Shown here one piece after another: positions 8,272-55,873 of a DNA stretch of 64,000 bases. The stretch comes from Patescibacteria group bacterium UBA2772. Lineage in GTDB: Bacteria > Patescibacteriota > Minisyncoccia > Moranbacterales > DUUL01. The stretch lies in assembly GCA_002352545.1 (NCBI GenBank), contig DEIO01000017.1:4631-68630 (forward strand), read 5' to 3'. Position 1 is the stretch's first letter. Each line of letters starts with the position of its first letter. Both the position numbers and the translations under genes were made by a program. Below the pieces are notes generated by a model that saw only the letters and a program-made list of their open reading frames with translations, was not told the DNA's origin and made no database searches.

Positions 8272-9105
8272 ATGACCGAAGAAGAAGAAAAGAAAGTAGA
8301 AAAAAAAGTAGAAGAGACAAAAGAGGAGACAAAAAAGACGGCACCAAAGGCTGGTGTTTCTTTTGATGTTACAGAAAGTTCAATTGAAAAGTACGAACTA
8401 TCTTTAGAAGGTATGTTGAAAGCAGGTGTTCACTTTGGACACAAAAAATCAAGATGGAACCCAAAGATGGGGCAGTTTATTTTCGGAGTACGAAATGGTA
8501 TTCATATCATTGATCTTGAGAAATCTCTTGTTTTATTTGAAAAAGCACTAGATAGAATTGAAAAAACTGTTACTAAAAGTGGCAAAGTAATGATTGTTGG
8601 GACAAAGAAACAAGCTAAGGACTTAATTAAAGCTGTTTCTGATAAACTTGAATTTCCATACGTAAATGAAAGATGGTTAGGAGGAACATTTACAAATTTT
8701 GGTATTATTAAAAAACGAGTTAAGTTTTTTGTAGAAAATACAGATGCTTTAGAACAAGGTAAATTGAAAGATTTAACTAAATTAGAAAGGCACAAACTAC
8801 AGAAAAGACTTGATAAGATTGAAGAAAAAATGGGTGGTCTTGTAAGAATGACTAAACTACCAGATTTAGTTATTGTTCTTGATTCTAAAAAAGAAGAATT
8901 GGCGATAAAAGAGGCTCATGCAATGGGAATCCCAGTTGTTGGTCTTGTTGATACAAATAGTGATCATACGGTTGTTGAATATCCAATTCCTGCTAATGAT
9001 GATGCACTTTCTTCATTAAAATATATATTAGGAGTTTTCTTAAAGAAAATGATGGAAGCAAAAAACAGTGTTGTTGTGGCTAAAGAGGTTAGCAACAAAA
9101 AATAG
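8272..9105 (+). CDS. rpsB: 30S ribosomal protein S2 with K/E-rich N-terminal extension
   Basis: Core S2 motifs (AGVHFGHKKSRWNPKM, ERWLGGTFTNF, PDLVIVLD, VGLVDTNSD). About 40 extra N-terminal charged residues. Confidence 0.95.
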   Translation: MTEEEEKKVEKKVEETKEETKKTAPKAGVSFDVTESSIEKYELSLEGMLKAGVHFGHKKSRWNPKMGQFIFGVRNGIHIIDLEKSLVLFEKALDRIEKTVTKSGKVMIVGTKKQAKDLIKAVSDKLEFPYVNERWLGGTFTNFGIIKKRVKFFVENTDALEQGKLKDLTKLERHKLQKRLDKIEEKMGGLVRMTKLPDLVIVLDSKKEELAIKEAHAMGIPVVGLVDTNSDHTVVEYPIPANDDALSSLKYILGVFLKKMMEAKNSVVVAKEVSNKK

Positions 9106-9131
9106 TACTATTTTAAATTAAACTATATAAA

Positions 9132-9710
9132 ATGCTAGAGTTAATTAAAAAAATAAGAAATCAAACAGGAGCTGGAGTTATTGATATCAAAAAAGCTTTA
9201 GATGAAGCAAAAGGTGACGAGACAAAGGCGATTGAACTTTTGAGAAAAAGAGGTTTGGAAAAAGCTGATAAAAAAGGAGGAAGAGACGCAAATGAAGGGA
9301 TAATCGCGTCGTATGTTCATTCAAATAATAGGGTTGCTGTTTTAGTTAAATTGCTTTGTGAAACAGATTTTGTTGCTAGGAATGAAGAATTTATTGCTTT
9401 AGGTGAGGATATTGCTATGCATATTGCAGCAATGAGTCCAAAATCAATTTCTTCAGAAGAAGTGCCAGAGGACTTAGTGGAACGAAGCAAGAAAGATTGG
9501 GCAGAAGAACTCTTAAAAGAGAATAAGCCAGCTGAGATTGTTGAAAAAATTATGCTTGGAAAAGAGCAAAAGCTTAGAAATGAAAATGCGTTACTTTCAC
9601 AGTCTTTTGTAAAAAATCCAGACAAGACTGTTGGAGAGCTTATAAAAGAAAAAGCAGGCAAAATGGGTGAGAATATCCAAGTTGGAGAATTTACCAGAAT
9701 AGAGCTATAA
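9132..9710 (+). CDS. tsf: Elongation factor Ts (short form)
   Basis: N-terminal UBA-like LIKKIRNQTGAGVIDIKKALDEAKGD and core LLCETDFVARNEEF. Directly downstream of rpsB. Only 192 aa. Confidence 0.9.
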   Translation: MLELIKKIRNQTGAGVIDIKKALDEAKGDETKAIELLRKRGLEKADKKGGRDANEGIIASYVHSNNRVAVLVKLLCETDFVARNEEFIALGEDIAMHIAAMSPKSISSEEVPEDLVERSKKDWAEELLKENKPAEIVEKIMLGKEQKLRNENALLSQSFVKNPDKTVGELIKEKAGKMGENIQVGEFTRIEL

Positions 9711-9753
9711 TTTAAAAGTAGGTAGGAATTTACCATAACCCCTTATAAACAGT

Positions 9754-10533
9754 ATGATTATTCGATTTTTTGATTGGGATCAGCCAAGAAATGTAACATC
9801 TAACACCACAGGAATTAAAAGAGACGACAAGGTGGTAGTTGAGCATGAGTGGGGGTCTTTTGTGGTAGATGTCATAATTGTTGATAAGAGTGTTGAGGGG
9901 GATGATATAGCAGGAAAAGTTGAGAGAAAGGCTACTCCACAAGATTTGGAAATTACATTGAATTATAAAACAAGGGAAGAGGATATGTTGGCTGAGGCTA
10001 AAAAAGAAACAAGAGTTCTTGATGTTCCTATGAAGATTATTGATGTAAAGATAAGTCTTGATGGTAGTTGCGCTGTGGTTGCTTTTGTTGCTGATGGCAG
10101 AGTTGATTTTAGACAATTAGTTAAGAACCTATCTTCTAGGTACGGTAAATCCATAAGACTTCAGCAAATCGGATCAAGAGATGAAGCTAGGCGTTGTGGA
10201 GGCTATGGTATTTGTGGAAGAGAACTTTGTTGTAGAAAAATGTCAGGTAATTTAAATAGTATTTCTACGGAAATGGCACGTTGTCAGTTTATTTCACATA
10301 GAGGCTCAGAGAGAATCTCTGGCTTATGTGGTAGATTGATGTGCTGTCTTTCCTATGAAGCAAAGCAATATCAGGAAATGATGAAAGAGCTTCCACAAAG
10401 AGGTGATATAGTCGATATTTCTGGTGAAAAGGGAAGAGTGATTGAACAGTTAACTTTAAGCAGGAAGTTGAAAGTTGAACTAGAAGATAAATCAATAGCT
10501 TTTGTTAGTGTCGATGAGATAAAAAAGAAATAA
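9754..10533 (+). CDS. PSP1 C-terminal domain protein (YaaT/RicT-like)
   Basis: Cys-rich PSP1-type region: GICGRELCCRKM...GLCGRLMCCLSYE. Confidence 0.8.
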   Translation: MIIRFFDWDQPRNVTSNTTGIKRDDKVVVEHEWGSFVVDVIIVDKSVEGDDIAGKVERKATPQDLEITLNYKTREEDMLAEAKKETRVLDVPMKIIDVKISLDGSCAVVAFVADGRVDFRQLVKNLSSRYGKSIRLQQIGSRDEARRCGGYGICGRELCCRKMSGNLNSISTEMARCQFISHRGSERISGLCGRLMCCLSYEAKQYQEMMKELPQRGDIVDISGEKGRVIEQLTLSRKLKVELEDKSIAFVSVDEIKKK

Positions 10534-44865: not shown

Positions 44866-44940
44866 AAAAGTATTTAATTGTTTTAGTCATTTTCTTGAGT
44901 ATATAGTATTTTGTATAAAACTATCAACTAAGAAAAGTAA

Positions 44941-44973
44941 ACGGACCTAACTCAAGATTTGAGATAGGTCCGT
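44941..44973 (-). terminator. Strong compound hairpin, probable terminator for a minus-strand transcript
   Basis: ACGGACCTA/TAGGTCCGT outer stem with inner CTCAA/TTGAG stem. On the minus strand it is followed by TTACTTTTCTT. Confidence 0.5.
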
Positions 44974-45278
44974 ATTTGAGGGCCCCTTCCCTCTAATGGC
45001 ACCGTATTATCGATAAAAGTGGCCGCTGCATTGAAAACCGTTGAGTTTGTTGCTGACAATGGTTGTGGTTACCATAATTCCTGTTTCGTCGGTATTTCCG
45101 ATGATGGCATTGTTTTTTTGCCGTTTACGGTAAAACCGTTGGACGAAAAGTTCTTGTGCATAAGCAATTTCTCCTCGATAAAATTGATGTTTGTGTAACA
45201 GATGTCACGCTTCAGATAAGGTACTGCAAGGTTGTTGGGTTTTTCCGAGCGCACAAAGGCACTTTGAAGTAATTTCAA
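44974..45278 (-). other. Unassigned segment: possible gene remnant or ncRNA
   Basis: Listed 69-aa ORF (TTG start) ends at a TAA, and the same frame stays open for 36 more codons up to the hairpin. No recognisable protein or RNA motif. Confidence 0.2.
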
Positions 45279-45440
45279 TTTTATTCCAGTTTAAAGTGTA
45301 GTTAATTGTCAAGTTTTTGTATATTTGCTTCATTCTAACTTAGTTTAGACATAAAATAATGAATGAGGGTGTTACTTTTTTATAAAAAGTTTGTTATAAT
45401 TATTATAGTGTAGTTTTCCAAATAAATAAGCACTGAAGAA

Positions 45441-46124
45441 TTGGAAAAAATGAATAGTATAAATGTAATCCTGACAGTTATCATGTTCACGCTTTTTGCT
45501 GTAGCAGGTCTTTTGGTTAAGTTTCCAGATAAAGGCGATGATTTGATGGTACAACTAGCTAAAGGGCAACTATTTTCAGAAGAAGGGATATATGCAGGAA
45601 ATGTTGAAAATATAGAAGGTACTCTTGAACAAAGAATACCAGATGGAGGTGGTTGGAAAAATGTAGCAGTTGGGGAAAGAATTATCTCTGGTATGGAGAT
45701 TAGAACTTTAGCTGATTCAAAAGCGATTATCAAATTTGATGATGGAAGTATTCTCAAGATGACTGAAGTTTCGCAGATTATTTTTGAAAATAAGTTGTAT
45801 CAAATCAATATAGAGGTAATTAACGGTTTTGTTTATAACGAAGTAGTGTTTTTTGCGTCTAGAAAATATAATGTAAAGACAGGTGATTACAAAATGGAAT
45901 CCACGGAAGGTATCTTTACTATAAATAAAGACTTTCAAGAAGATCCAGAGGTGTTAATTCTTGAAGGACGGATTGATTTATTTTTGCTGGAAGAGAAAAA
46001 AAATGAGTTTGCAAAAGATAGAAAACTTTTTTTAAGATCTGATTCGATTGAGGAACTTGATTTTTCAAAGAATGAACTGCAAAGCGAAGAGATGATTTGG
46101 AGTTTTGATAAAAGAGAAAAATAA
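45441..46124 (+). CDS. FecR-domain membrane protein
   Basis: N-terminal TM helix (INVILTVIMFTLFAVAGLLV; probable ATG start at 45450), then a FecR-like segment WKNVAVGERIISGMEIRTLADSKAIIKFDDGSILKMTEVSQIIF. Confidence 0.6.
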   Translation: MEKMNSINVILTVIMFTLFAVAGLLVKFPDKGDDLMVQLAKGQLFSEEGIYAGNVENIEGTLEQRIPDGGGWKNVAVGERIISGMEIRTLADSKAIIKFDDGSILKMTEVSQIIFENKLYQINIEVINGFVYNEVVFFASRKYNVKTGDYKMESTEGIFTINKDFQEDPEVLILEGRIDLFLLEEKKNEFAKDRKLFLRSDSIEELDFSKNELQSEEMIWSFDKREK

Positions 46125-46250
46125 AAAATACAAGCAAGCAAATTAGTGTGTTCAATGTTATATTCTCGATATTTTTGGATAAAGATGAGTATAACTTTGA
46201 GTATTATTAGTCTGTAATTTAAACAGTAGTTACTCACTGGCATTGTTTTT

Positions 46251-49200
46251 TTGTTTTATAAAAACAGAAGGTTAATAAGAATTTTAGCTAAAGTGGAACA
46301 AAAAAATAACAAAAAAAATAAAAGTTTATACAAAAAACCAAAAAAAGAATCAAGTATTCTTGGCATTTTTGGTTTGTTTCGCAGGAATAAAAAGGTAAAA
46401 AACAGATCAAAGATTGTTTCTAAGCCCCTTGTTGAGAAATCTACTGGTAGCAAACTTGATCAATTTTTGGAAATGCAAAGGGGGGGGAGAAGAGACAGAA
46501 CTGTTTTGGGTTGGAGATTTAGTTTTTTGAAAATTGCCTCTAAGTTTAAAGACTTTGTTTCTGTGGTATCAACATTTGTTTTTAGATTGTTGAAAGTATT
46601 AGTTTACAATTCAAGTTTATTGACTGGTTTAATTGTGGTTATTTTTCTTGTTAGTCCTCTTATTTCTGCAGCTCCACAGTCAAAGGTCATAACTTCTCAA
46701 AATGAATGGGAAAGGGGAGAGGTTTCAAATGTATCTACAACGAGTAAGACCGATTCTATTCAATTGAAGTCAGATGGAACTTGGACTGCACGTGCTTGGG
46801 CGCCAACCGAGGATACTATCGCTTATGGCTCCTCATCTGTTATTGTTGGAAATCACCTATACGTGATTAGAGGATATAGTGATAACGATCTTTATGTTTA
46901 TAATATAGGACTTAATGAATGGGAAGAGACAATTGACCTTCCACAGCCAGCATTTTATGGTGCGGATATTGCATATAATGGCACTGATAAGATATATTTT
47001 ATTTTTGGTGGATATTCAAAAGAGTTTTATTCCTATGATATTGAGAGTAAGAGCTGGGAAAGATTGCCAGAGCTTTTGGATTCTGTTTATTTAGGTGCTT
47101 CAATTGAGTTTGATGGCACAGATTTATATATCAATAGAGGAACGGTGTCGACTGATTTTTGGAAATTTGATATTTCAGAAAACAGTTGGTATAACTTAGC
47201 TCCCTCCCCAGCAACAATTTATCGAGGTGGTAATATGGTCTATGGGGAAAATGGAAAGATGTATGTATTAAGGGGTTATAACCGTGATACTTTTTGGGAA
47301 TATGATATTGCTTCCAATGAGTGGAACGTTCTAGCTGGAGCACCAGGGACATTCTATGGAGAGCAAAAAGGCCTCTATAGAGATGGTTATGTTTATTTTT
47401 TGCGTTCATATAATACTACAGGTTTTTATCGTTATAATATTGCAGGAGATTCTTGGGAGACACTTGAGAACACACCTTTAATAACAGACTATTCTTCATT
47501 GTCCTATGATTCTGATAATGATGAGATTTTTGTTATTAGAGCAGATGGTTCATATAATTTTTGGAAATTTGATCCAACAGAGGGCGCTACTGGCGACTGG
47601 ATAGGACCAGAAAATGTTCCAGGAACGGTTAATAGTGGTGGTGATCTAATTTGGAATGGTGTTTCTGGCGTTGGTAATTATGTTTATGTTGTTCAGGGAG
47701 ATGGAAGGACTGGATTTTTTAGATACGATGTCTCAAATAACACCTGGGACACAATGGCAAATATTCCGGCTACTATGGGATATGACACAAAAGGGACTTA
47801 TCATAATGGATATGTCTATATTGCAAGAGGGGATAATACTACTGGTAATTTTTACCGATATGACGTAGCAGGAGATTCATGGAGTACAATGGCAGTTGCA
47901 CCTGGAACTTTGCGTTACGGCTGTAGTGCAACATATAACGCTTCGGATGGATATATCTACATGACAAGAGGTAATGGGCAGGATGATCTTTATCGTTATG
48001 ATATTGCTGGTGATTTCTGGGTATCAATGGCTGAAATAGTTGCTGATGGAATTAGGTACTATGTTTATTCTGGAGGTAGATTGATTTCTGATGGAACTGA
48101 TTTATATTTGATGCCTGGTGATGGTGAGACTGCATTTTTGAAATATGACACAGCTGGTAATTCTTGGAGTACGCTTAGCAGAATGCCAACAGCTCAGTAT
48201 TATGGTACTGATATGACATATGATGGAAATGGTAAGATTCTAGCTTTGGGGGGAAACTACAAAGATCATACTTGGGAATACGATGTAGTCGGCGATATTT
48301 GGAGAGAATTGCCTTTTAATCAGAAATATGCATACGAAAGAGGAACAGGAACAGGTGCTTCCATTGAGTATGCAGGAAACAATTCCTTCTATGCTACACC
48401 TGGAAATGATTTGACCGATTTTTGGAGCTATACTGCGGGCACAAATAATTTTGTTTCTAATGGAACGTTCATAAGTGAAATATTGGACCTGGGACATGTT
48501 GAAAGTTGGATTTCATTAACCGCAAATGAAAACACACCTTCCAACACAGCTCTTTCATATGAAACAAGATCCTCAAATGATATGAACGGCTGGTCAATAT
48601 GGGAGTCGCTTTCTGGAACAGACATTCAGTCTCCAATGAGAAGGTATTTACAAATCAGAGTAACGCTGACAACTTCTGATGGAGTTAGTACCCCGACTGT
48701 GAATGATTTAACAATTTCATATAATAGCGAAGACGTTGACCCTACTAATCCAGTAACGATTATAGCTTCTTCTGCTAGAGTAGGTGGAGATATTCTAGTT
48801 TCCGGTACACCATATAAACACGCACACCCTTATCTTACTTGGTCTGAGGGTATTGATGCTGGTTCTAGTATCGAAGGTTACTATGTTTATTTTGGAGACA
48901 ATGATTCTGCTGATCCAGAGACAGATGGAATTTTCCAGACATCTACAAGTTTTTCTGTTAATTTAGCTATGGCGACAGGGGAATACTATCTTAGGATAAA
49001 AACAAAAGATAATGACGGGAATGTGACTGATGACGCATGGAGTGCTTTTACATACAACTATAGCGGAGTTTCACCATTTCAAGTTGAAACAAAAACTACA
49101 CAAGCCGATTTTGAAGAAGGAGCTGTTGAGGATATTTCAACTTCAAATGAACCAGACAAGCTACAGTTGGAAGGGGTTGACGGGTTTTGGCAACAAACGC

Positions 49201-52200
49201 TACTTTCAAATGCTCCAGGGACTATTCAAAGAGGCGGAGAACTAGCACTTTCTGATGGAAAATTATATGCATTAAGGGGGAATAATCAAAGAAATTTGTA
49301 CGTATATGATTTAGAGAATGATATTTGGTCTACGCTTAGTGATACTCCTGATACAGTATATTATGGAGGCTCCTTGATAGAGGGGCCAGAAGGATTTTTA
49401 TATGCCTCACGTGGATATAACTCTCCTACATTTTGGATGTATGATATAGAGGCTGACAGTTGGTCTTCTAGTTCCAGTGCTCCAAAAAACTTTACATATG
49501 GTAGTTCATTATCATCAAAAGGTGAGAGATATATCTATGCTTTTCCTGGAAATGATGATGTTTTCTATCGTTACGATACTCAAGAAAATCGTTGGACAAC
49601 CCTGAATAATGCAGAATTTGGAAATCCAAATGAAGGTGATGGACAAAGAGCTTATGTCGGTGGAGACGCAGTTTCTGATGGCGAGAACTATATCTATGCA
49701 TCTCAAGGAAACTATTACCCTTATTTTTCTAAGTATATAATTGAAGATGATGAGGAGAAAGGTGAGGAAGCAGACACTTGGGTTCCTTTAGCTAAATCTC
49801 CGATTGGAGTTTCTTATGGTGGTTGTGTTGCCTATGACGATGAAACCAAGTCAGTTTTTATGCTAAGTGGAAATTGGAGGGACAATTTTTTAAGATATGA
49901 TTCAATAACTGATTCTTGGAATGAGCTGCCAAAGATACCAGCTAGTATAGCTTATGGAACAACAATGAAAGTTGTCGATGGATTTGTCTATGTTCTAAGG
50001 GCAAATAATTCATCTTTATTCTATCGGTTTAATATCGAAGAAAATTCTTGGGAAATTCCACAAAGAGGTCTTTTTGGACCATCTCATCTAGGGACTGGCT
50101 CTACTTTTGATTATTACTATGGATCTGAAATGGAAGAAGATGATAGCGGGAATATCTATATAATACGTGGAGATCATAGCAATGATTTTGGTAGGTATAA
50201 TATTTCTTCAGGAGAATTTGTGATGTTAGATTCTTTACCTGTAGGTGTTTATTATGGTTCTGCAATGGTGTTTAATAAAGACGAAGGTGCTATCTATGCC
50301 TCGGCAGGATCTGGAATAAGAACAAGAGACAATAGCGGAGAGAGTAATTACTTTATGAAATATACAATAGCTACTAATTCTTGGGAAATTATCACAGATG
50401 ATCCCATCCCAGACCAAACTTCATATGGTTCTTCAATGGTTTATGATGGTTCAAGATATATTTATCTTTCAGAAGGATCTAACACGGACGATTGGTGGAG
50501 TTATGATACGCAAGCTGTTTCCGGTTCAAGATGGTCAACTAATTTACCAACCACAAGTGGTCAATTGCAATACTATGGAGGGGAGATGATATATAAAGAA
50601 GTTGGTGGAGTCCCATATATTTATTGGACAAGAGGAGGAACAACAGTATATTTTTTCAAATATAATTTAGATACAAGTACCTGGACGCGGCTTGAGGATA
50701 CACCAGAAACGCTTCAACATGGTGCCTCACTGGTTGATGGTGAAGATGGGTATTTATATACTGCAAGAGGTCAAAATACAGGTAGTTTTTTTAGATTTAA
50801 TATATCAGGTGAAATATGGGAAACCCTGGAGGAGGTCCCGGCACGAGTGTATACAGGCGGAGCAGCAACGTTTGCTAGTGACAGGGTTTGGATGATTGCT
50901 AGAGGATCATATGCCTATACTGATGGTATCTATAGTTATTTGATAGGTTCTCAGGATACAGATACTGGTTTTAAGAAGACAGGAAACTATACATCAGAAT
51001 CAATTGATTTGATTGATGTTTATCGTTGGGGAAATCTAACAGCTAATTATACTTTACCAACAAATACCAGTATTCAGATTTACACAAGAACATCTGGTGA
51101 TGAATCTGAATGGACAACATGGGAACAAGTTTCAAATGAGCAGATATTGAATAATGAACATCGTTTCAATATTTCGTCAGGTGTTAATAGATATCTTCAA
51201 ATTAGAACAGAATTTACTTCTTCGGACAGAATAAAATCACCATTGCTTGAAGATATTACTGTTAATTATTATCAAGATTCTGTAGCTCCAACAAATCCGA
51301 CCGTAGTTAGTGCATATGACACTAGATCTTTAGTTAATTCTCTTGTAACGGATTCGTGGTATGATCATGGGTCGCCTCATTTTGTTTGGCCTAGTGATGA
51401 ACAAGTTGGCGGTGCTAGCGATGGTGTTGGCGGGTCTGGTGTTGTGGGCTACTATGTCTATTTTGGTACAAATGCTTTAGTGGACCCATATCTAGATGGA
51501 ACATTTCAAACTACAAATGAATATACAGCAACAGAGCTGGTCACAGGGCAGAATTATTATCTTAGAATCAAAGCAGTTGATGATGCTCAAATGATTCCAG
51601 CTTCAACATATGCTGCTTTTACTTATAAATATGATGTTACGCCTCCGGAAAATCCGACTAGTATATTAGTTAATCCAGCTGGGTATACAGCTTTTGATAC
51701 ATATGACTTTACATGGAACTCTGATGCAATAGATTTGCATTCAGGGGTTGATCATTTTGAATATCAAACGGGCGGTGATGATCCATCTACATGGGTTGAA
51801 ATAAGTGATCCAGCTACAATCACAATGACACTACCAAGTGTTGATCATGTGGTTGCTGCTTATCAGTCTGGTAAGAATTGGTTCCATTTACGAGTTGTAG
51901 ATGCTGCGGGAAATATTTCAGAAACTTTGAAGCAAGAATATTATTTTAGTGCTAGTGCTCCTTCTCCTCCAAGAAATTTAACGGTGACACCAGAGACTTC
52001 AACTACAAATTCATTTGCATTTCAATGGGAGCAACCAGAATCATTTTTAGGTGATGCATCAAAGGTCTCTTATTTATATTCAGTAAATGCTCTACCTAAT
52101 GCGTATAATACAACAAAGACTGTTGTTAGAGCTGCTGGCCCAGGACCTTTCGCAACGCAGAAAGGGGCAAATAGATTTTATGTCTGTGCTATGGATGAAG

Positions 52201-53771
52201 CTGAAAATGTGGATTACGATCTGTATGCATATGTTGATTTTACTGCTGATACAACTGCTCCTGGTACGCCAGTTAATGTGCAGATATTTGATACATCTGA
52301 TAGAGAAAATCAAGAATATTCAATTGCTATTAAATGGTCACCACCAGCTGCAATTAATGAAGATAATTTTGCTGGATATATAATATATAGAAGTGATGAT
52401 GGAGTTACTTTTGCAGAGATGGCATCTACTTCTGGTAGTGCATATGTAGATACAGAACTTACAAGCAGGTTGTATTATTATCAAGCAAAGTCAAAAGATA
52501 GTACAAATAATGTTTCAGTTGAGTCAACAACTGTTAGCATTCTTCCAACCGGTAGATACACAACAGCACCAAAACTTGTTACAGAACCTTCTCATACTGT
52601 TCAGGCTTATGATGCTGAGATAAAATGGGGAACAAATCGTGTCGCAAGCTCATTTGTGGAGTATGGAAAATCGATGAGCTTTGGAAAAACCAATGGTCAA
52701 GTAGATAGTGTGACTGACCATATTGTTTCTCTTTCAGGGCTGGATGCTGGTTCAAAATATTATTATAAAGCAAAATACATTGATCCAGACGGTAATATAG
52801 GAACAAGTGAAATCTTGAATTTCGAGACTTTACCACCACCAACTATTTCGGAAGTAGAGGTTACTGATATAGGATTAGAGATAGCAACGGTATCTTGGGA
52901 GACGAATACTAGTTCTGCATGTACCTTAAAATATGGAAAAAATTCTACACTGACAGATACAATGGAGGAGAGTTCTTCAGGTGGAGGACATCTTATGAGG
53001 GTAGAAGATCTTGAAAGTACAACAGATTATAATTTTCAAATAGATTGTCTTGATGATGATCTAAATGATTTTAGTTCAGATAGATATAACTTCAGAACAT
53101 TAGAACAACCAGTTTCTTCCGAGTTAATTGTTGAAAACAAAGAAAATGTTGATCTGCCGACGGTAATTGTTAAATATAATACAACTCTTCCTACAAGCAC
53201 GCTTGTTAAATTTAAAACCTTCAATGAAGGTGAGCCTCATAATTATTTGGACAACACTTTTGTAACAGAGCACTCCATTGAATTAGAGGGGCTGATTCCT
53301 TCAGTTGAATATCAGATTAGTGTAGGAGGTATAGCAGAAGATGGCGTGACCGCAACAACGTTAGAGACTAATGTTGTTACAAAAGCTGATAGTAGGCCAC
53401 CAGGAATTGTTTCGAATAGAGCTGTAGGTAGAGTAATTGGAAGAGGTAACGACGCTAGAGCTAATTTGTATATTAAAGTGGAAACAGATGAATTAACTAC
53501 AACAAAAGTATTTTATAGTCCTGGAATTGTTTTGAGTAACTTTGAACAAAGTTCCTCTGAAGATCCCCTAAATACATATCATTTAGTTACAATACCAGTT
53601 GAACCAGGACAAGTTTATAGTTATATAGTTAAGGCATATGATGAATCAGGAAATGAAACCGCAACAAAAGCTGTAACTGTTGTAGTCGAAGATTCAAAGC
53701 AGAATGCAACGGAAATTGTAGTCGGAACTTTTTCTGATAAGTTCAGTTGGATTTCTAAATTATGGGAATGA
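46251..53771 (+). CDS. Giant (about 2,500 aa) N-terminally anchored Kelch-like / FN3-like surface protein
   Basis: Single uninterrupted ORF. Basic ~120-aa N-terminus, one hydrophobic helix (LLTGLIVVIFLVSPLISAAP), two blocks of 12 Kelch-like blades, two homologous ~90-aa modules, and a C-terminal array of FN3-like units. Start uncertain: TTG 46251, GTG 46293 or ATG 46473. Confidence 0.85.
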   Translation: MFYKNRRLIRILAKVEQKNNKKNKSLYKKPKKESSILGIFGLFRRNKKVKNRSKIVSKPLVEKSTGSKLDQFLEMQRGGRRDRTVLGWRFSFLKIASKFKDFVSVVSTFVFRLLKVLVYNSSLLTGLIVVIFLVSPLISAAPQSKVITSQNEWERGEVSNVSTTSKTDSIQLKSDGTWTARAWAPTEDTIAYGSSSVIVGNHLYVIRGYSDNDLYVYNIGLNEWEETIDLPQPAFYGADIAYNGTDKIYFIFGGYSKEFYSYDIESKSWERLPELLDSVYLGASIEFDGTDLYINRGTVSTDFWKFDISENSWYNLAPSPATIYRGGNMVYGENGKMYVLRGYNRDTFWEYDIASNEWNVLAGAPGTFYGEQKGLYRDGYVYFLRSYNTTGFYRYNIAGDSWETLENTPLITDYSSLSYDSDNDEIFVIRADGSYNFWKFDPTEGATGDWIGPENVPGTVNSGGDLIWNGVSGVGNYVYVVQGDGRTGFFRYDVSNNTWDTMANIPATMGYDTKGTYHNGYVYIARGDNTTGNFYRYDVAGDSWSTMAVAPGTLRYGCSATYNASDGYIYMTRGNGQDDLYRYDIAGDFWVSMAEIVADGIRYYVYSGGRLISDGTDLYLMPGDGETAFLKYDTAGNSWSTLSRMPTAQYYGTDMTYDGNGKILALGGNYKDHTWEYDVVGDIWRELPFNQKYAYERGTGTGASIEYAGNNSFYATPGNDLTDFWSYTAGTNNFVSNGTFISEILDLGHVESWISLTANENTPSNTALSYETRSSNDMNGWSIWESLSGTDIQSPMRRYLQIRVTLTTSDGVSTPTVNDLTISYNSEDVDPTNPVTIIASSARVGGDILVSGTPYKHAHPYLTWSEGIDAGSSIEGYYVYFGDNDSADPETDGIFQTSTSFSVNLAMATGEYYLRIKTKDNDGNVTDDAWSAFTYNYSGVSPFQVETKTTQADFEEGAVEDISTSNEPDKLQLEGVDGFWQQTLLSNAPGTIQRGGELALSDGKLYALRGNNQRNLYVYDLENDIWSTLSDTPDTVYYGGSLIEGPEGFLYASRGYNSPTFWMYDIEADSWSSSSSAPKNFTYGSSLSSKGERYIYAFPGNDDVFYRYDTQENRWTTLNNAEFGNPNEGDGQRAYVGGDAVSDGENYIYASQGNYYPYFSKYIIEDDEEKGEEADTWVPLAKSPIGVSYGGCVAYDDETKSVFMLSGNWRDNFLRYDSITDSWNELPKIPASIAYGTTMKVVDGFVYVLRANNSSLFYRFNIEENSWEIPQRGLFGPSHLGTGSTFDYYYGSEMEEDDSGNIYIIRGDHSNDFGRYNISSGEFVMLDSLPVGVYYGSAMVFNKDEGAIYASAGSGIRTRDNSGESNYFMKYTIATNSWEIITDDPIPDQTSYGSSMVYDGSRYIYLSEGSNTDDWWSYDTQAVSGSRWSTNLPTTSGQLQYYGGEMIYKEVGGVPYIYWTRGGTTVYFFKYNLDTSTWTRLEDTPETLQHGASLVDGEDGYLYTARGQNTGSFFRFNISGEIWETLEEVPARVYTGGAATFASDRVWMIARGSYAYTDGIYSYLIGSQDTDTGFKKTGNYTSESIDLIDVYRWGNLTANYTLPTNTSIQIYTRTSGDESEWTTWEQVSNEQILNNEHRFNISSGVNRYLQIRTEFTSSDRIKSPLLEDITVNYYQDSVAPTNPTVVSAYDTRSLVNSLVTDSWYDHGSPHFVWPSDEQVGGASDGVGGSGVVGYYVYFGTNALVDPYLDGTFQTTNEYTATELVTGQNYYLRIKAVDDAQMIPASTYAAFTYKYDVTPPENPTSILVNPAGYTAFDTYDFTWNSDAIDLHSGVDHFEYQTGGDDPSTWVEISDPATITMTLPSVDHVVAAYQSGKNWFHLRVVDAAGNISETLKQEYYFSASAPSPPRNLTVTPETSTTNSFAFQWEQPESFLGDASKVSYLYSVNALPNAYNTTKTVVRAAGPGPFATQKGANRFYVCAMDEAENVDYDLYAYVDFTADTTAPGTPVNVQIFDTSDRENQEYSIAIKWSPPAAINEDNFAGYIIYRSDDGVTFAEMASTSGSAYVDTELTSRLYYYQAKSKDSTNNVSVESTTVSILPTGRYTTAPKLVTEPSHTVQAYDAEIKWGTNRVASSFVEYGKSMSFGKTNGQVDSVTDHIVSLSGLDAGSKYYYKAKYIDPDGNIGTSEILNFETLPPPTISEVEVTDIGLEIATVSWETNTSSACTLKYGKNSTLTDTMEESSSGGGHLMRVEDLESTTDYNFQIDCLDDDLNDFSSDRYNFRTLEQPVSSELIVENKENVDLPTVIVKYNTTLPTSTLVKFKTFNEGEPHNYLDNTFVTEHSIELEGLIPSVEYQISVGGIAEDGVTATTLETNVVTKADSRPPGIVSNRAVGRVIGRGNDARANLYIKVETDELTTTKVFYSPGIVLSNFEQSSSEDPLNTYHLVTIPVEPGQVYSYIVKAYDESGNETATKAVTVVVEDSKQNATEIVVGTFSDKFSWISKLWE

Positions 53772-54580
53772 TGAAAAAAGTAAAAAAAGAAGAAGGTATT
53801 AGTAAGACCAGTGTATTGCATGGTCTAGAAAATAGAAATCACAAAAGAGCAACCTCTGAGTTATATACAGAAAAAGAGGGGGTTGTGGTTGTTAGTAATG
53901 TAAAAAAGCATTTTATAGTTGGTGATAACAATATCTCAGTTCTAGATGGTGTTGGACTAAAGATAAAACAAGGAGATTTTGCAATGTTAGTTGGTCCTTC
54001 GGGTTGCGGAAAATCAACACTTTTACATATTGTTTATGGTCTAGAGGCACCAACTGAGGGAGAAGTTTTCATTAAAGGTACAGATATCTGGAAGCATACC
54101 AAAAACTGGAGAGCGGATTTTAGAAATAAAGGGGTTGGGTTTATTCCACAACAAGCATTTTGGTTAAAATCTTTGAGTGTTTTGGAGAATGTTGCTGTTC
54201 CTTCGATAATTGGAGGATTAAAATTTCATGAAGGTCTGGAAAAGGCTGCTCAAATGCTTGAATTAGTAGGAATGAGCCAGTGGTCAAAGCATAGACCTTT
54301 TGATCTCTCTGGTGGACAACAGCAAAGAGTTGCTCTTGCTAGAGCACTTTTATTAAATCCCTGGTTTATAATTGCCGATGAACCAACTGGAAACTTGGAT
54401 CATAAGTCAGGAGTTGAACTTATGGATTTAATAAAACAATTAAATGATAGGTTTGACATAACAATATTAATGGTCACACATAATCCTGAACAATATGCCT
54501 ATGCAACAAAGGTATTTAAAATGTTAGACGGACAGATTGCGGAAGTTGTTGAGAATAAAAAGAGAAAGTTAAAAAAATAA
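53762..54580 (+). CDS. ABC transporter ATP-binding protein (MacB/LolD/FtsE-like)
   Basis: Walker A GPSGCGKST, signature LSGGQQQRVALARAL, Walker B IIADEPTGNLD. The in-frame ATG at 53768 forms an ATGA overlap with the giant gene's TGA (53769-53771). Confidence 0.93.
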   Translation: MGMMKKVKKEEGISKTSVLHGLENRNHKRATSELYTEKEGVVVVSNVKKHFIVGDNNISVLDGVGLKIKQGDFAMLVGPSGCGKSTLLHIVYGLEAPTEGEVFIKGTDIWKHTKNWRADFRNKGVGFIPQQAFWLKSLSVLENVAVPSIIGGLKFHEGLEKAAQMLELVGMSQWSKHRPFDLSGGQQQRVALARALLLNPWFIIADEPTGNLDHKSGVELMDLIKQLNDRFDITILMVTHNPEQYAYATKVFKMLDGQIAEVVENKKRKLKK

Positions 54581-54582
54581 AA

Positions 54583-55824
54583 ATGAAGTTAGCTTTTTGG
54601 AAAAAAGAAAAATACTCTAAAATCAAATTGTACATGATTATTTTTCTTAGTTGGAGAAATCTTCGTGTTAACAAAACCAGGTCTTTTTTAACGGTTGGTG
54701 GTGTTGCTTTGGGTATTGCTATAATATCTTTTTTGCTTTGTATTGGTTTTGGTATTCAAGGAATGATTATCGATGAAGTTACTAAAAATAATCCTCGAGA
54801 TGTAATGGATATTAACAATGGAAACTTAGACAATTTCGTTACATTGAATGATAGCTTTATTGAGAAAATTCAAAATATAGAGAATGTTGAAAAAGTTACT
54901 AGGCAGGTTAATACTGGAGGAAAATTGGAATATAATGATTCCCAGATTGATATTGTTATTTATGGAGCAAATCGTGATTACTTAGAGCTTGCCAAGATTC
55001 CTTTTGAAGAAGGAGACAAAAAATTCGAAGACGACAAAGGTGGTATAATAGCATCTATGCAAATCGCAAATATTATGGGACTAGATGATCCTAAGGAGCT
55101 TATCGGGAAAAAAGTAAAAATAGACGTCGTACTTTCAAAAGAAATCAGCTCAACGATTAAAGAGGAAACGACTGCTACTGGAAATGAAGTTGAGATTATA
55201 GGAATCTCTCACTCAACCAATTCAATTGTGTATATGCCGTTTTCTTATTTGAATCAAGAGTTCGGTATTGATTCTGCTCAGAAAGGAAAAATCTTAATGA
55301 AGGATCCAAATATAATGGCCACAGCAGAGCTAGCTGTACAGCATTTAGGTTTTTTAACAGAGAGTGTGAACGAAATAATAGAAGATATCAATAGTTTTTT
55401 TGTGGTTATTAGAATTATTATGATAATTCTAGGAACAATTATTATGTCTATTTCAGCGATGGGTATGTTAAATACGCTTAGTATTTCTCTTCTGCAGAGA
55501 ACTAAAGAGGTTGGAATTTTGAAAGCTCTAGGAGCGAAAAGAGAAGACATATTTAAAATGTTTATTTTTGAAGCAATTTTGATTAGTGTTGTAGGAGGAT
55601 TAATTGGTCTATTTAGTGGTTATGGAATAGCTTTTGGTGCTAATAAGTTGCTTATTTATCTAGCAAATAATAATGAAGTTGAACTTTCTTACTTTGTTTA
55701 TATACCTTATTACTTTATTGCGGCAATTGCTTTCTTTATTCTTTTTCTTGGTCTTATTACAGGGATTATGCCAGCTCAACGTGCAGCAAAGATTCATGCA
55801 TTAGATGCACTTCGCTATGAATAA
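54583..55824 (+). CDS. ABC transporter permease, FtsX/MacB type
   Basis: TM1, a ~230-aa extracytoplasmic domain, then three C-terminal TM helices with LQRTKEVGILKALGA and the terminal PAQRAAKIHALDALRYE. Starts 2 nt after the ATPase stop. Confidence 0.9.
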   Translation: MKLAFWKKEKYSKIKLYMIIFLSWRNLRVNKTRSFLTVGGVALGIAIISFLLCIGFGIQGMIIDEVTKNNPRDVMDINNGNLDNFVTLNDSFIEKIQNIENVEKVTRQVNTGGKLEYNDSQIDIVIYGANRDYLELAKIPFEEGDKKFEDDKGGIIASMQIANIMGLDDPKELIGKKVKIDVVLSKEISSTIKEETTATGNEVEIIGISHSTNSIVYMPFSYLNQEFGIDSAQKGKILMKDPNIMATAELAVQHLGFLTESVNEIIEDINSFFVVIRIIMIILGTIIMSISAMGMLNTLSISLLQRTKEVGILKALGAKREDIFKMFIFEAILISVVGGLIGLFSGYGIAFGANKLLIYLANNNEVELSYFVYIPYYFIAAIAFFILFLGLITGIMPAQRAAKIHALDALRYE

Positions 55825-55850: not shown

Positions 55851-55873
55851 ACACTCCAATGGAGTGTTTTTTT
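55851..55873. terminator. Bidirectional terminator between the ABC permease and glgP
   Basis: A7-ACACTCC-AAT-GGAGTGT-T7. Confidence 0.8.

Follow-up and report, generated by a model that had tools for sequence, protein, structure and literature searches.

Does a giant surface protein encoded in a Patescibacteria genome work together with the transporter genes that follow it? The question is raised by a stretch of 64,000 nt from Patescibacteria group bacterium UBA2772 (assembly GCA_002352545.1, contig DEIO01000017.1, positions 4,631–68,630; the whole stretch is called the window below), in which a preliminary description, made from the sequence alone, had read four consecutive genes as a dedicated cell-surface apparatus. 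These genes encode a FecR-domain protein (45441–46124, 227 aa), a giant surface protein with Kelch and fibronectin type III (FN3) domains (46251–53771, 2,506 aa), an ATP-binding cassette (ABC) ATPase (53762–54580, 272 aa) and a MacB/FtsX-type permease (54583–55824, 413 aa). All four open reading frames (ORFs) were found at these positions on the plus strand, and the Pfam check bore out their identities as FecR, Kelch/fn3, ABC_tran and MacB_PCD plus FtsX. We refer to the giant, ATPase and permease genes and their products as the triad.

Linkage of the giant gene to the ABC gene pair

The giant ORF and the ABC pair had been regarded as one dedicated unit, and we found that their linkage holds when searched from either gene. 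Starting from the permease, we scanned one genome per species and recovered 48 loci, nearly all of them from Moraniibacteriota; wherever enough upstream DNA was present, tblastn with the window proteins placed a giant homologue directly upstream of the ATPase gene. Nearly all of these giants aligned as a single collinear high-scoring segment pair of ~2,400–2,700 aa with 42–71% identity, and their divergence tracked that of the permease. Starting from the giant, we searched metagenomes with its C-terminal 600 residues and obtained 75 distinct loci. Where at least 3.9 kb of downstream sequence was available (53 loci), the ATPase and permease genes followed in 52; with 1–3.9 kb (15 loci), the ATPase gene followed in 14. 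The only exceptions were two truncated paralogues (L115, 219–5279, 1,687 aa; L100, 3636–7844, 1,403 aa), both of which lack the N-terminal units and align just to the sandwich of unit 2 and the FN3 stalk, described below. No recognisable ABC ATPase or MacB/FtsX-type permease was found downstream of either, and the next ORF in L100 encodes an unidentified membrane protein.

Some 100 independent loci were thus found via the permease or the giant C-terminus, and apart from the truncated paralogues all of those with enough flanking DNA carry a full-length collinear giant of ~2,350–2,700 aa followed, at a spacing of −79 to about +530 nt, by an ATPase and a MacB-type permease. Among the 38 loci that could be scored cleanly, the distance from the giant stop to the ATPase start was −28 to +103 nt, with 22 overlapping, and the commonest ATPase–permease junction was a 4- or 11-nt overlap. 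The junctions described for the window were confirmed: the giant TGA (53769–53771) shares bases with an ATPase ATG in an ATGA overlap at 53768–53771, a second in-frame ATPase ATG stands at 53762, 6 nt before this overlap, and the permease ATG (54583) lies 2 nt past the ATPase TAA.

The giant homologues formed two groups, a Moranbacteria-type group of 2,450–2,675 aa and a distant one of ~2,350–2,410 aa with 36–40% identity, for which a single source name, ‘Patescibacteria group’ (P0200), was recorded; an ABC ATPase and a MacB_PCD/FtsX permease were encoded directly downstream in all five distant-clade contigs inspected. The permease family is widespread among Parcubacteria-type metagenome-assembled genomes (MAGs). 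Gene-called contigs at 81%, 66%, 55%, 53% and 51% permease identity all had the order giant (2,238–2,607 aa), ATPase, permease, and the flanking genes were wholly different in each, the flanks changing from lineage to lineage. The tight linkage in both directions and the differing flanks indicate that the triad is a genuine conserved module, mobile as a unit, and we consider it very probable that its three genes form a functional unit.

A very long and internally duplicated protein could also be the product of faulty assembly or annotation, or of a chimera driven by repeats. This explanation is scarcely credible and was rejected: collinear full-length homologues of 2,350–2,700 aa occur in more than 100 independent assemblies, the two duplicated units are only 28% identical and hence not recent repeats, and the AlphaFold2 models (residues 148–945 and 1797–2506) are confident throughout.

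Individual loci showed further arrangements. In L009 (1–704) and L053 (contig JBAZYY010000001.1), the giant gene is immediately preceded by the end of a second MacB_PCD/FtsX permease gene, which may belong to another copy of the module in tandem. An insertion of ~1.2 kb, or a frameshift, lies between or within the ATPase and permease genes of L026 (8684–9854) and of L024 and L041 (~9100–9850); decay or interruption of the module, or faulty assembly, may account for them. Response-regulator genes stand directly upstream of the giant gene in two unrelated contexts, with a PilB-like T2SSE ATPase in L005–L007 (1–1545) and with a PAS histidine kinase in L061 (5186–7763), which hints at two-component control of the module in some lineages. 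The Moranbacteria-type module was also present in GenBank MAG records labelled ‘uncultured Bdellovibrionales’ (L022, L027, L028, L046, L052 and L057), ‘Melioribacter roseus’ (L042) and ‘Candidatus Fimivivens’ (L025), which look like mis-binned or mislabelled Patescibacteria contigs.

Architecture of the giant protein and the transporter

The giant protein begins with a predicted cytoplasmic tail (residues 1–112, 46251–46586; all parts of the gene lie on the plus strand), the start codon being uncertain between TTG 46251 and GTG 46293, the latter being the JGI call. The tail is very basic, as had been noted, with 32 Lys/Arg vs 7 Asp/Glu in the 112 residues before the hydrophobic segment. This segment is the only one in the protein, and in this respect the single hydrophobic helix of the preliminary description stood; its span, given there as about residues 125–147, was revised by Kyte–Doolittle analysis to residues 113–147 (46587–46691), of which 125–147 form the core. 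From the alignment of N-termini it could be a signal-anchor or a long signal peptide with the end SPLISA/AP. Hydrophobicity and motif scans agreed with the earlier statement on the C-terminus, where no anchor, second hydrophobic segment or LPXTG motif was found. The ectodomain is strongly acidic (324 Asp/Glu vs 147 Lys/Arg).

Pfam placed Kelch_1, Kelch_2, Kelch_3, Kelch_4, Kelch_6 and fn3 above their cut-offs in the giant, with 109.8 bits for Kelch_6 and 76 bits for Kelch_1; these profiles above gathering score and the blades in the AlphaFold2 model are those of a Kelch-repeat propeller protein. Two segments of the giant, residues 148–945 and 1797–2506, were modelled with AlphaFold2. Unit 1 (residues 148–945, 46692–49085), assigned from AlphaFold2, Foldseek and Pfam, was predicted with a mean predicted local distance difference test score (pLDDT) of 91.7 and a predicted template-modelling score (pTM) of 0.78 as an all-beta structure of ~12 four-stranded blades in tandem beta-propellers, a beta-sandwich and an FN3-like domain, and the ~45-residue spacing of its invariant tryptophans leads us to infer two six-bladed Kelch propellers. 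Its top Foldseek matches were tandem double-propeller proteins, namely the heparin-sensing domain of BT4663 (E = 3e-16), PorZ, GH74 xyloglucanases and LRP6; since the template-modelling (TM) scores were only ~0.3, with ~10% identity, the likeness is architectural and does not amount to close homology. Unit 2 (residues 946–1796, 49086–51638) is related to unit 1 by an ancient internal duplication (27.8% identity over 866 columns, E = 6e-74), with Kelch_3 recognised by Pfam at residues 1010–1038, and its layout of tandem propellers, beta-sandwich and FN3-like domain is predicted from this homology.

The C-terminal region (residues 1797–2506; pLDDT 88.7) was modelled as seven FN3-like sandwiches and a terminal helix, and its pTM of 0.39 indicates that the arrangement of the domains relative to each other is not fixed. 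The seven FN3-like beta-sandwich domains make up a stalk (residues 1797–2485, 51639–53705; AlphaFold2, Foldseek, Pfam fn3 and Pur_ac_phosph_N), the Foldseek matches of which were FN3/Ig arrays. It is followed by an amphipathic helix (residues 2486–2506 plus the TGA, 53706–53771), NATEIVVGTFSDKFSWISKLWE, predicted with a pLDDT of ~57, whose motif ..NA.(E/D).V..(T/S)(F/L)...FG(W/F)...L is kept in both clades and which is a candidate docking element.

Residues 150–2506 gave a nearly gapless alignment of 40 sequences from both clades. In this alignment, identity to the window protein per 50-residue block ranged from 0.34 to 0.63 with its peak at residues 1900–2200, and the conservation profile showed the FN3 stalk to be the most conserved part of the giant. 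Because the ectodomain aligns almost without gaps across deep clades, we regard it as slow-evolving and not as a fast-evolving adhesin. No curated family and no enzymatic domain were found for the giant in Pfam and NCBIfam, and the sequence search of the PDB gave no match.

The ATPase matched ABC_tran at 9.6e-33 (Pfam), and Walker A, Q-loop, LSGGQ, Walker B with the catalytic Glu, and H-loop are intact (residues 78, 128, 182, 202 and 238). The permease carries MacB_PCD at residues 34–229 (3.6e-16) and FtsX at residues 281–405 (1.6e-19), and its hydrophobic segments at 33–66, 264–304, 322–352 and 368–400 correspond to four transmembrane helices with an extracytoplasmic domain of ~200 aa between the first and the second. 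Both the ATPase motifs and the topology and domains of the permease are thus those of type VII ABC transporters. The top NCBIfam matches of the ATPase were LolD, YbbA, the MacB nucleotide-binding domain, DarD and FtsE, all under the equivalog cut-offs: 218.5 bits vs 307.75 for LolD and 169.9 vs 264.85 for FtsE, with 73.7 vs 362.45 for the permease on lolCE, 28–33 vs 225–255 for the permease on FtsX models, and 94 vs 966 on the MacB equivalog. The ATPase also scored on bacteriocin and darobactin exporter models. The closest solved chains to the permease in the PDB sequence search were YtrF, MacB, Spr0695 and LolF. By these sequence comparisons the ABC pair is a member of the type VII (MacB/FtsX-fold) superfamily and not an orthologue of MacB, LolCDE or FtsEX. 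In type VII ABC transporters such as MacB, LolCDE, FtsEX and HrtBA, ATP moves the outer domains and no substrate passes through the membrane; for the triad, such ATP-driven movement without transmembrane passage would follow from family membership only.

On balance we lean towards the giant being an extracytoplasmic partner, exported by Sec, of a type VII (mechanotransmitting) ABC transporter. Its export would leave the basic tail in the cytoplasm and the protein anchored in this lineage, and the giant would then dock on the outer domain of the permease dimer, probably via the conserved FN3 stalk and the C-terminal helix. The ABC pair would not carry the giant across the membrane; ATP hydrolysis would instead move the outer domain, as in FtsEX, LolCDE and MacB, and the giant would thereby be assembled, held, switched or released. 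As the tandem propellers resemble glycan-binding double propellers, the distal propellers would probably bind a conserved polysaccharide of the cell’s own envelope or of a host surface. More tentatively, the triad could be a Patescibacteria-specific ATP-powered extracellular machine, in which the ABC motor actuates a four-propeller arm of ~275 kDa via the FN3 stalk and C-terminal helix and which might capture, grip or release a conserved glycan, host or own envelope; if extended, the arm could span tens of nanometres. The attachment device suggested in the preliminary description is weakened by the slow, nearly indel-free evolution of the giant seen in the alignment.

Natural variants bear on this proposal. 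The giants of the Moranbacteria-type clade (73 clusters) have a hydrophobic segment with a median start at residue 110, preceded by the basic tail, and the long tail has a shared motif near the transmembrane segment. This tail is absent from the distant clade (46 clusters), where the hydrophobic segment starts at a median residue of 11 and resembles a classical cleavable signal peptide of AXA type, e.g. ...VPKPVQA/ATTTF. The permeases fell into three length classes of 398–462, 671–726 and 817–853 aa, the outer domain being greatly expanded in the longest. As a measure of N-terminal tail length we counted the open codons that precede the ectodomain. At least 90 of them were present in each of the 36 loci with short permeases (398–462 aa), which is consistent with a giant that has a long tail and a transmembrane anchor, and 13 of the 18 loci with enlarged permeases (671–853 aa) had at most 76, leaving room for a short signal peptide only; four of the five long-permease exceptions appear to be measurement artefacts of frameshifted or interrupted loci. 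The association of N-terminal type with permease size gave p = 3e-5 in a Mann–Whitney test without phylogenetic correction. A giant without its own anchor therefore goes with more extracytoplasmic mass on the transporter side, a pattern consistent with what physical association predicts.

In the longest-permease clade, an ORF of ~135 aa lies between the giant and ATPase genes (L059, 15136–15552; L060, 15126–15521), and the small-ORF loci comprise nine metagenome loci, e.g. L103, L121 and L129. Its product, a lineage-specific fourth component, has an N-terminal transmembrane helix and a weak FN3/Pur_ac_phosph_N-like domain. Further small ORFs close to the triad, in L063 and L064, were considered as the same component and rejected; they are unrelated to the ORF of L059 and L060, and there is thus no fourth conserved component.

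The same variants bear on a Lol-like extractor or releaser, in which the ABC pair would pull the N-terminal anchor of the giant from the membrane or pass the protein to the wall or surface. LolD is the top match of the ATPase (218 bits), the permease matches lolCE models, the giant of this lineage has a single N-terminal hydrophobic anchor, and the type VII ABC transporters LolCDE and HrtBA are known to extract membrane-embedded substrates. However, the scores fall far short of every Lol equivalog cut-off, a lipobox is lacking in the giant and the module has a single permease gene. The persistence of the ABC pair, even enlarged, where the giant carries a classical cleavable signal peptide and would not have to be extracted further weakens this explanation, and we judge it unlikely.

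Alternatively, the ABC pair could export an unrelated small substrate (a peptide, lipid-linked glycan or antimicrobial), with the giant as an outer adaptor or funnel in a MacA-like operon position or merely co-regulated. MacB-family pumps with an upstream gene for an N-terminally anchored adaptor are common, as in macAB and Spr0693–0695, and the scores on bacteriocin and darobactin exporter models and the presence of MacB and Spr0695 among the closest solved chains fit such a pump. Yet the giant has neither a membrane-fusion protein (MFP)/HlyD domain nor a coiled-coil hairpin, no conserved candidate substrate gene stood beside the triad in the loci examined, and a strictly conserved collinear partner of 2,400 aa is hard to explain on these terms, which makes a small-substrate pump an improbable alternative.

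The slow, housekeeping-like evolution of the giant would also suit an FtsEX-like switch of cell-wall remodelling, in which the giant is a wall-binding regulator or effector under ABC control in growth or division. The logic is that of FtsEX with EnvC, PcsB, CwlO or RipC; YtrF, the closest solved permease, comes from an operon induced by cell-wall antibiotics; and in some loci the module has Amidase_2 or Mur-ligase genes as neighbours. These flanking wall genes are not conserved, however, the pair scores below the FtsE/FtsX equivalog cut-offs, the outer domain of the permease is of MacB_PCD and not FtsX type, and Pfam and NCBIfam found no hydrolase, LysM, SH3 or peptidoglycan-binding domain in the giant. 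We therefore give this switch little credence.

Several points weigh against the mechanotransmitting partner that we favour and against the functions proposed for it. The link between N-terminus and permease size largely follows the split between the clades and could stem from only one or two evolutionary events. Neither an enzymatic nor a known partner domain is recognisable in the giant, which has no coiled coil like that of EnvC or PcsB and no MFP/HlyD domain. Conserved adjacency demonstrates functional linkage and not a mechanism, the contact between giant and permease being one that we infer, and glycan binding is a loose structural analogy, with Foldseek TM-scores of ~0.3 for the predicted model.

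The FecR gene and the boundaries of the locus

The FecR protein matched PF04773 at residues 86–178 (32.1 bits vs a cut-off of 24, 1.6e-7; Pfam) and has an N-terminal transmembrane segment at residues 3–30. Its gene precedes the giant gene by 126 nt on the same strand, and the protein had been proposed to serve the giant and the ABC pair as a sensor or scaffold. A four-gene apparatus of this kind fits the position of the gene and the predicted extracytoplasmic FecR domain, and the arrangement is retained in the two closest genomes, L001 and L012. These were the only ones among 32 distinct loci with a FecR homologue upstream of the giant, the gene being absent there from the other 30 (phmmer, all upstream ORFs), and the FecR family comprised just 12 clusters, all at least 56% identical. 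Elsewhere the upstream neighbours of the giant were genes for a T2SSE ATPase, a MerR regulator, a beta-lactamase-fold protein, GH57 and a response regulator. Relatives in which conserved linkage is lacking had been named beforehand as evidence that would speak against the proposal, and for the FecR link one such relative was found. L062 has the synteny of the window (pth, LytR, MFS, ClpB, rlmH, FecR, phosphorylase, purM, uvrD), and its FecR gene is directly followed by a bidirectional terminator and the phosphorylase gene; tblastn found no giant, ATPase or permease in it. The rarity of the gene upstream of the giant, the restriction of its family to close relatives and its occurrence in L062 without the triad place FecR outside the module. 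We thus take the gene to be part of the local backbone, an unrelated neighbour, with the triad sitting between FecR and the terminator in the lineage of the window; the four-gene apparatus is very unlikely.

The FecR domain in the product of 45441–46124 also recalls FecIRA-type signalling. Unlike in such systems, the transmembrane segment begins at residue 3, which leaves no space for a cytoplasmic anti-sigma domain, there are no sigma factor or receptor genes nearby in the window, and the gene has no conserved linkage to the triad.

Downstream, the bidirectional intrinsic terminator that had been reported at 55851–55873 was recovered; the triad shares it with a convergent glycogen-phosphorylase-like gene. 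The hairpin A7-ACACUCC-AAU-GGAGUGU-U7 was read in the sequence, and folding agreed (−22.8 kcal/mol, z = −9.4); a simple consensus terminator scanner overlooked it, probably because its A/U flanks lengthen the stem. The locus is flanked in the window by housekeeping genes (rlmH, clpB, a LytR-family gene, pth, the glycogen-phosphorylase-like gene, cdsA, purM and uvrD/pcrA), and homologues of the window proteins point to Candidatus Moraniibacteriota, within the Parcubacteria/Patescibacteria group. A search with PADLOC gave only generic ABC-ATPase similarity and nothing for the giant or FecR, and an anti-phage defence system was rejected.

Upstream, the region at 44.9–45.4 kb does adjoin the four genes as described, but it is not simply the long unassigned boundary it had been taken for, as it contains a conserved small minus-strand ORF and a hairpin. 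The small ORF, with a strong ribosome-binding site, lies in the gap between rlmH and FecR (window 44940–45280; L062 9450–9840). The window copy, GAGGAGAAATTGCTTATG, has its ATG at 45161 and stops after 30 codons, and homology to the 60-aa peptide of L062 runs on in another frame, which suggests a frameshift near an A-run. A hairpin at 44944–44972 follows the ORF, and the differences between its window and L062 versions include compensatory changes. Rfam searches of the gap (44.85–45.46 kb) found no non-coding RNA at the gathering threshold, nor any with E relaxed to 1. Between the FecR and giant genes, a long AT-rich imperfect hairpin at 46142–46213 (−30.1 kcal/mol, z = −3.0) precedes a T7 run. 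We rejected it as a conserved regulator, the equivalent region of L001 folding differently; it may be a lineage-specific attenuator or terminator, or arise by chance.

Significance and relation to known systems

To our knowledge, very little has been established on how the ultrasmall, probably host-dependent Patescibacteria build their envelopes or contact their partners. That such tiny genomes keep a 7.5-kb gene nearly indel-free across deep lineages, always with its own ATPase and permease, points to a central role at the cell surface. The partners of type VII ABC transporters that we know of are small activators, adaptors and lipoprotein chaperones, and the module would add a giant propeller/FN3 protein to the partners of mechanotransmitting ABC systems. 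Should the reading as an ATP-powered arm prove true, the module would represent a novel type of surface organelle in ultrasmall episymbionts and provide the first known giant partner of a mechanotransmitting ABC transporter. Its natural variants, an anchored giant with a small permease and a secreted giant with an enlarged permease, sometimes with a small transmembrane FN3 protein, offer material for studying how the motor is coupled. The current labels are only ‘hypothetical protein’, ‘N-acetylneuraminic acid mutarotase’ and ‘putative ABC transport system permease’, and the module can serve as a concrete annotation marker.

The preliminary description knew of no system of such composition, and we likewise found none in the full-text literature on Kelch, MacB/FtsX, S-layer and giant-gene topics in Patescibacteria and the candidate phyla radiation. 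For other Patescibacteria, large surface proteins with adhesion domains are mentioned in general terms only (PMC13059738). We accordingly describe the triad as a type VII ABC system whose giant partner is without precedent, and it can be set against several known systems with which it shares features.

The RTX/Lap-type adhesins (LapA–LapBCE, SiiE–SiiCDF) also combine a giant repetitive surface protein, encoded beside ABC genes, with a conserved C-terminal element. In contrast, their type I secretion systems consist of a six-helix HlyB-type exporter, an MFP and TolC and handle substrates without an N-terminal signal, whereas the ABC pair of the triad is of MacB/FtsX type and the giant has a Sec-type N-terminal signal and is slow-evolving rather than variable. 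Pfam and NCBIfam found no RTX or Ca-binding repeats in the giant, and we do not regard the locus as one of type I secretion.

The sensor BT4663, of the hybrid two-component type, PorZ of the type IX secretion system and GH74 enzymes share with unit 1 the succession of two beta-propellers and an Ig-like domain, and these double-propeller proteins bind polysaccharide chains. The blades of unit 1 differ in being Kelch-type, no catalytic or ligand residues were recognised in it, and the resemblance is confined to the low TM-scores and ~10% identity given above.

Among the type VII systems, LolCDE provides the best ATPase match (LolD) and permease matches (lolCE), and, like the triad as we read it, it is a type VII ABC system that works on a protein anchored in the membrane. 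The triad differs in scores far under the cut-offs, in one permease gene where LolCDE has two, and in a giant without a lipobox; its lineage is presumed to be single-membraned, and no LolA or LolB gene adjoins the module.

MacAB–TolC, Spr0693–0694–0695 and YknXYZ share with the triad the permease fold and the MacB periplasmic core domain, and MacAB-like loci have the same gene order of N-terminally anchored extracytoplasmic partner, ATPase and permease. Unlike these pumps, the triad has an upstream gene that is about six times larger and encodes an all-beta protein, and Pfam searches of the giant and of the neighbours in the window and homologous loci found no HlyD-family membrane-fusion adaptor and no TolC-like gene.

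YtrF of the Bacillus subtilis YtrEF system (PDB 9o9x/9o9y) is the closest solved permease chain (E = 5.9e-25, in the C-terminal FtsX domain); the similarity is limited to the C-terminal 160 residues of the permease, and the ytr operon has no giant partner gene. The 2025 work on YtrEF is cited in PMC12772383.

FtsEX with EnvC, PcsB, CwlO or RipC is the closest functional analogy, as a type VII ABC system with a separate ATPase, a four-helix permease of FtsX fold, an extracytoplasmic protein and no transported solute. In FtsEX, ATP hydrolysis is thought to be passed mechanically to the extracytoplasmic partner. The triad differs in that it misses the FtsE and FtsX cut-offs and has an outer domain of MacB_PCD type, and in that its partner is a propeller/FN3 protein of 2,500 aa with neither a coiled coil nor a hydrolase-activating domain, the two AlphaFold2 models being all-beta except for the terminal helix; the partner gene is also translationally coupled to the ATPase gene. 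The triad falls outside the FtsEX and MacAB-type families by the NCBIfam comparisons, is organised like macA–macB or Spr0693–0695 and, by analogy, would work most like FtsEX with its partners.

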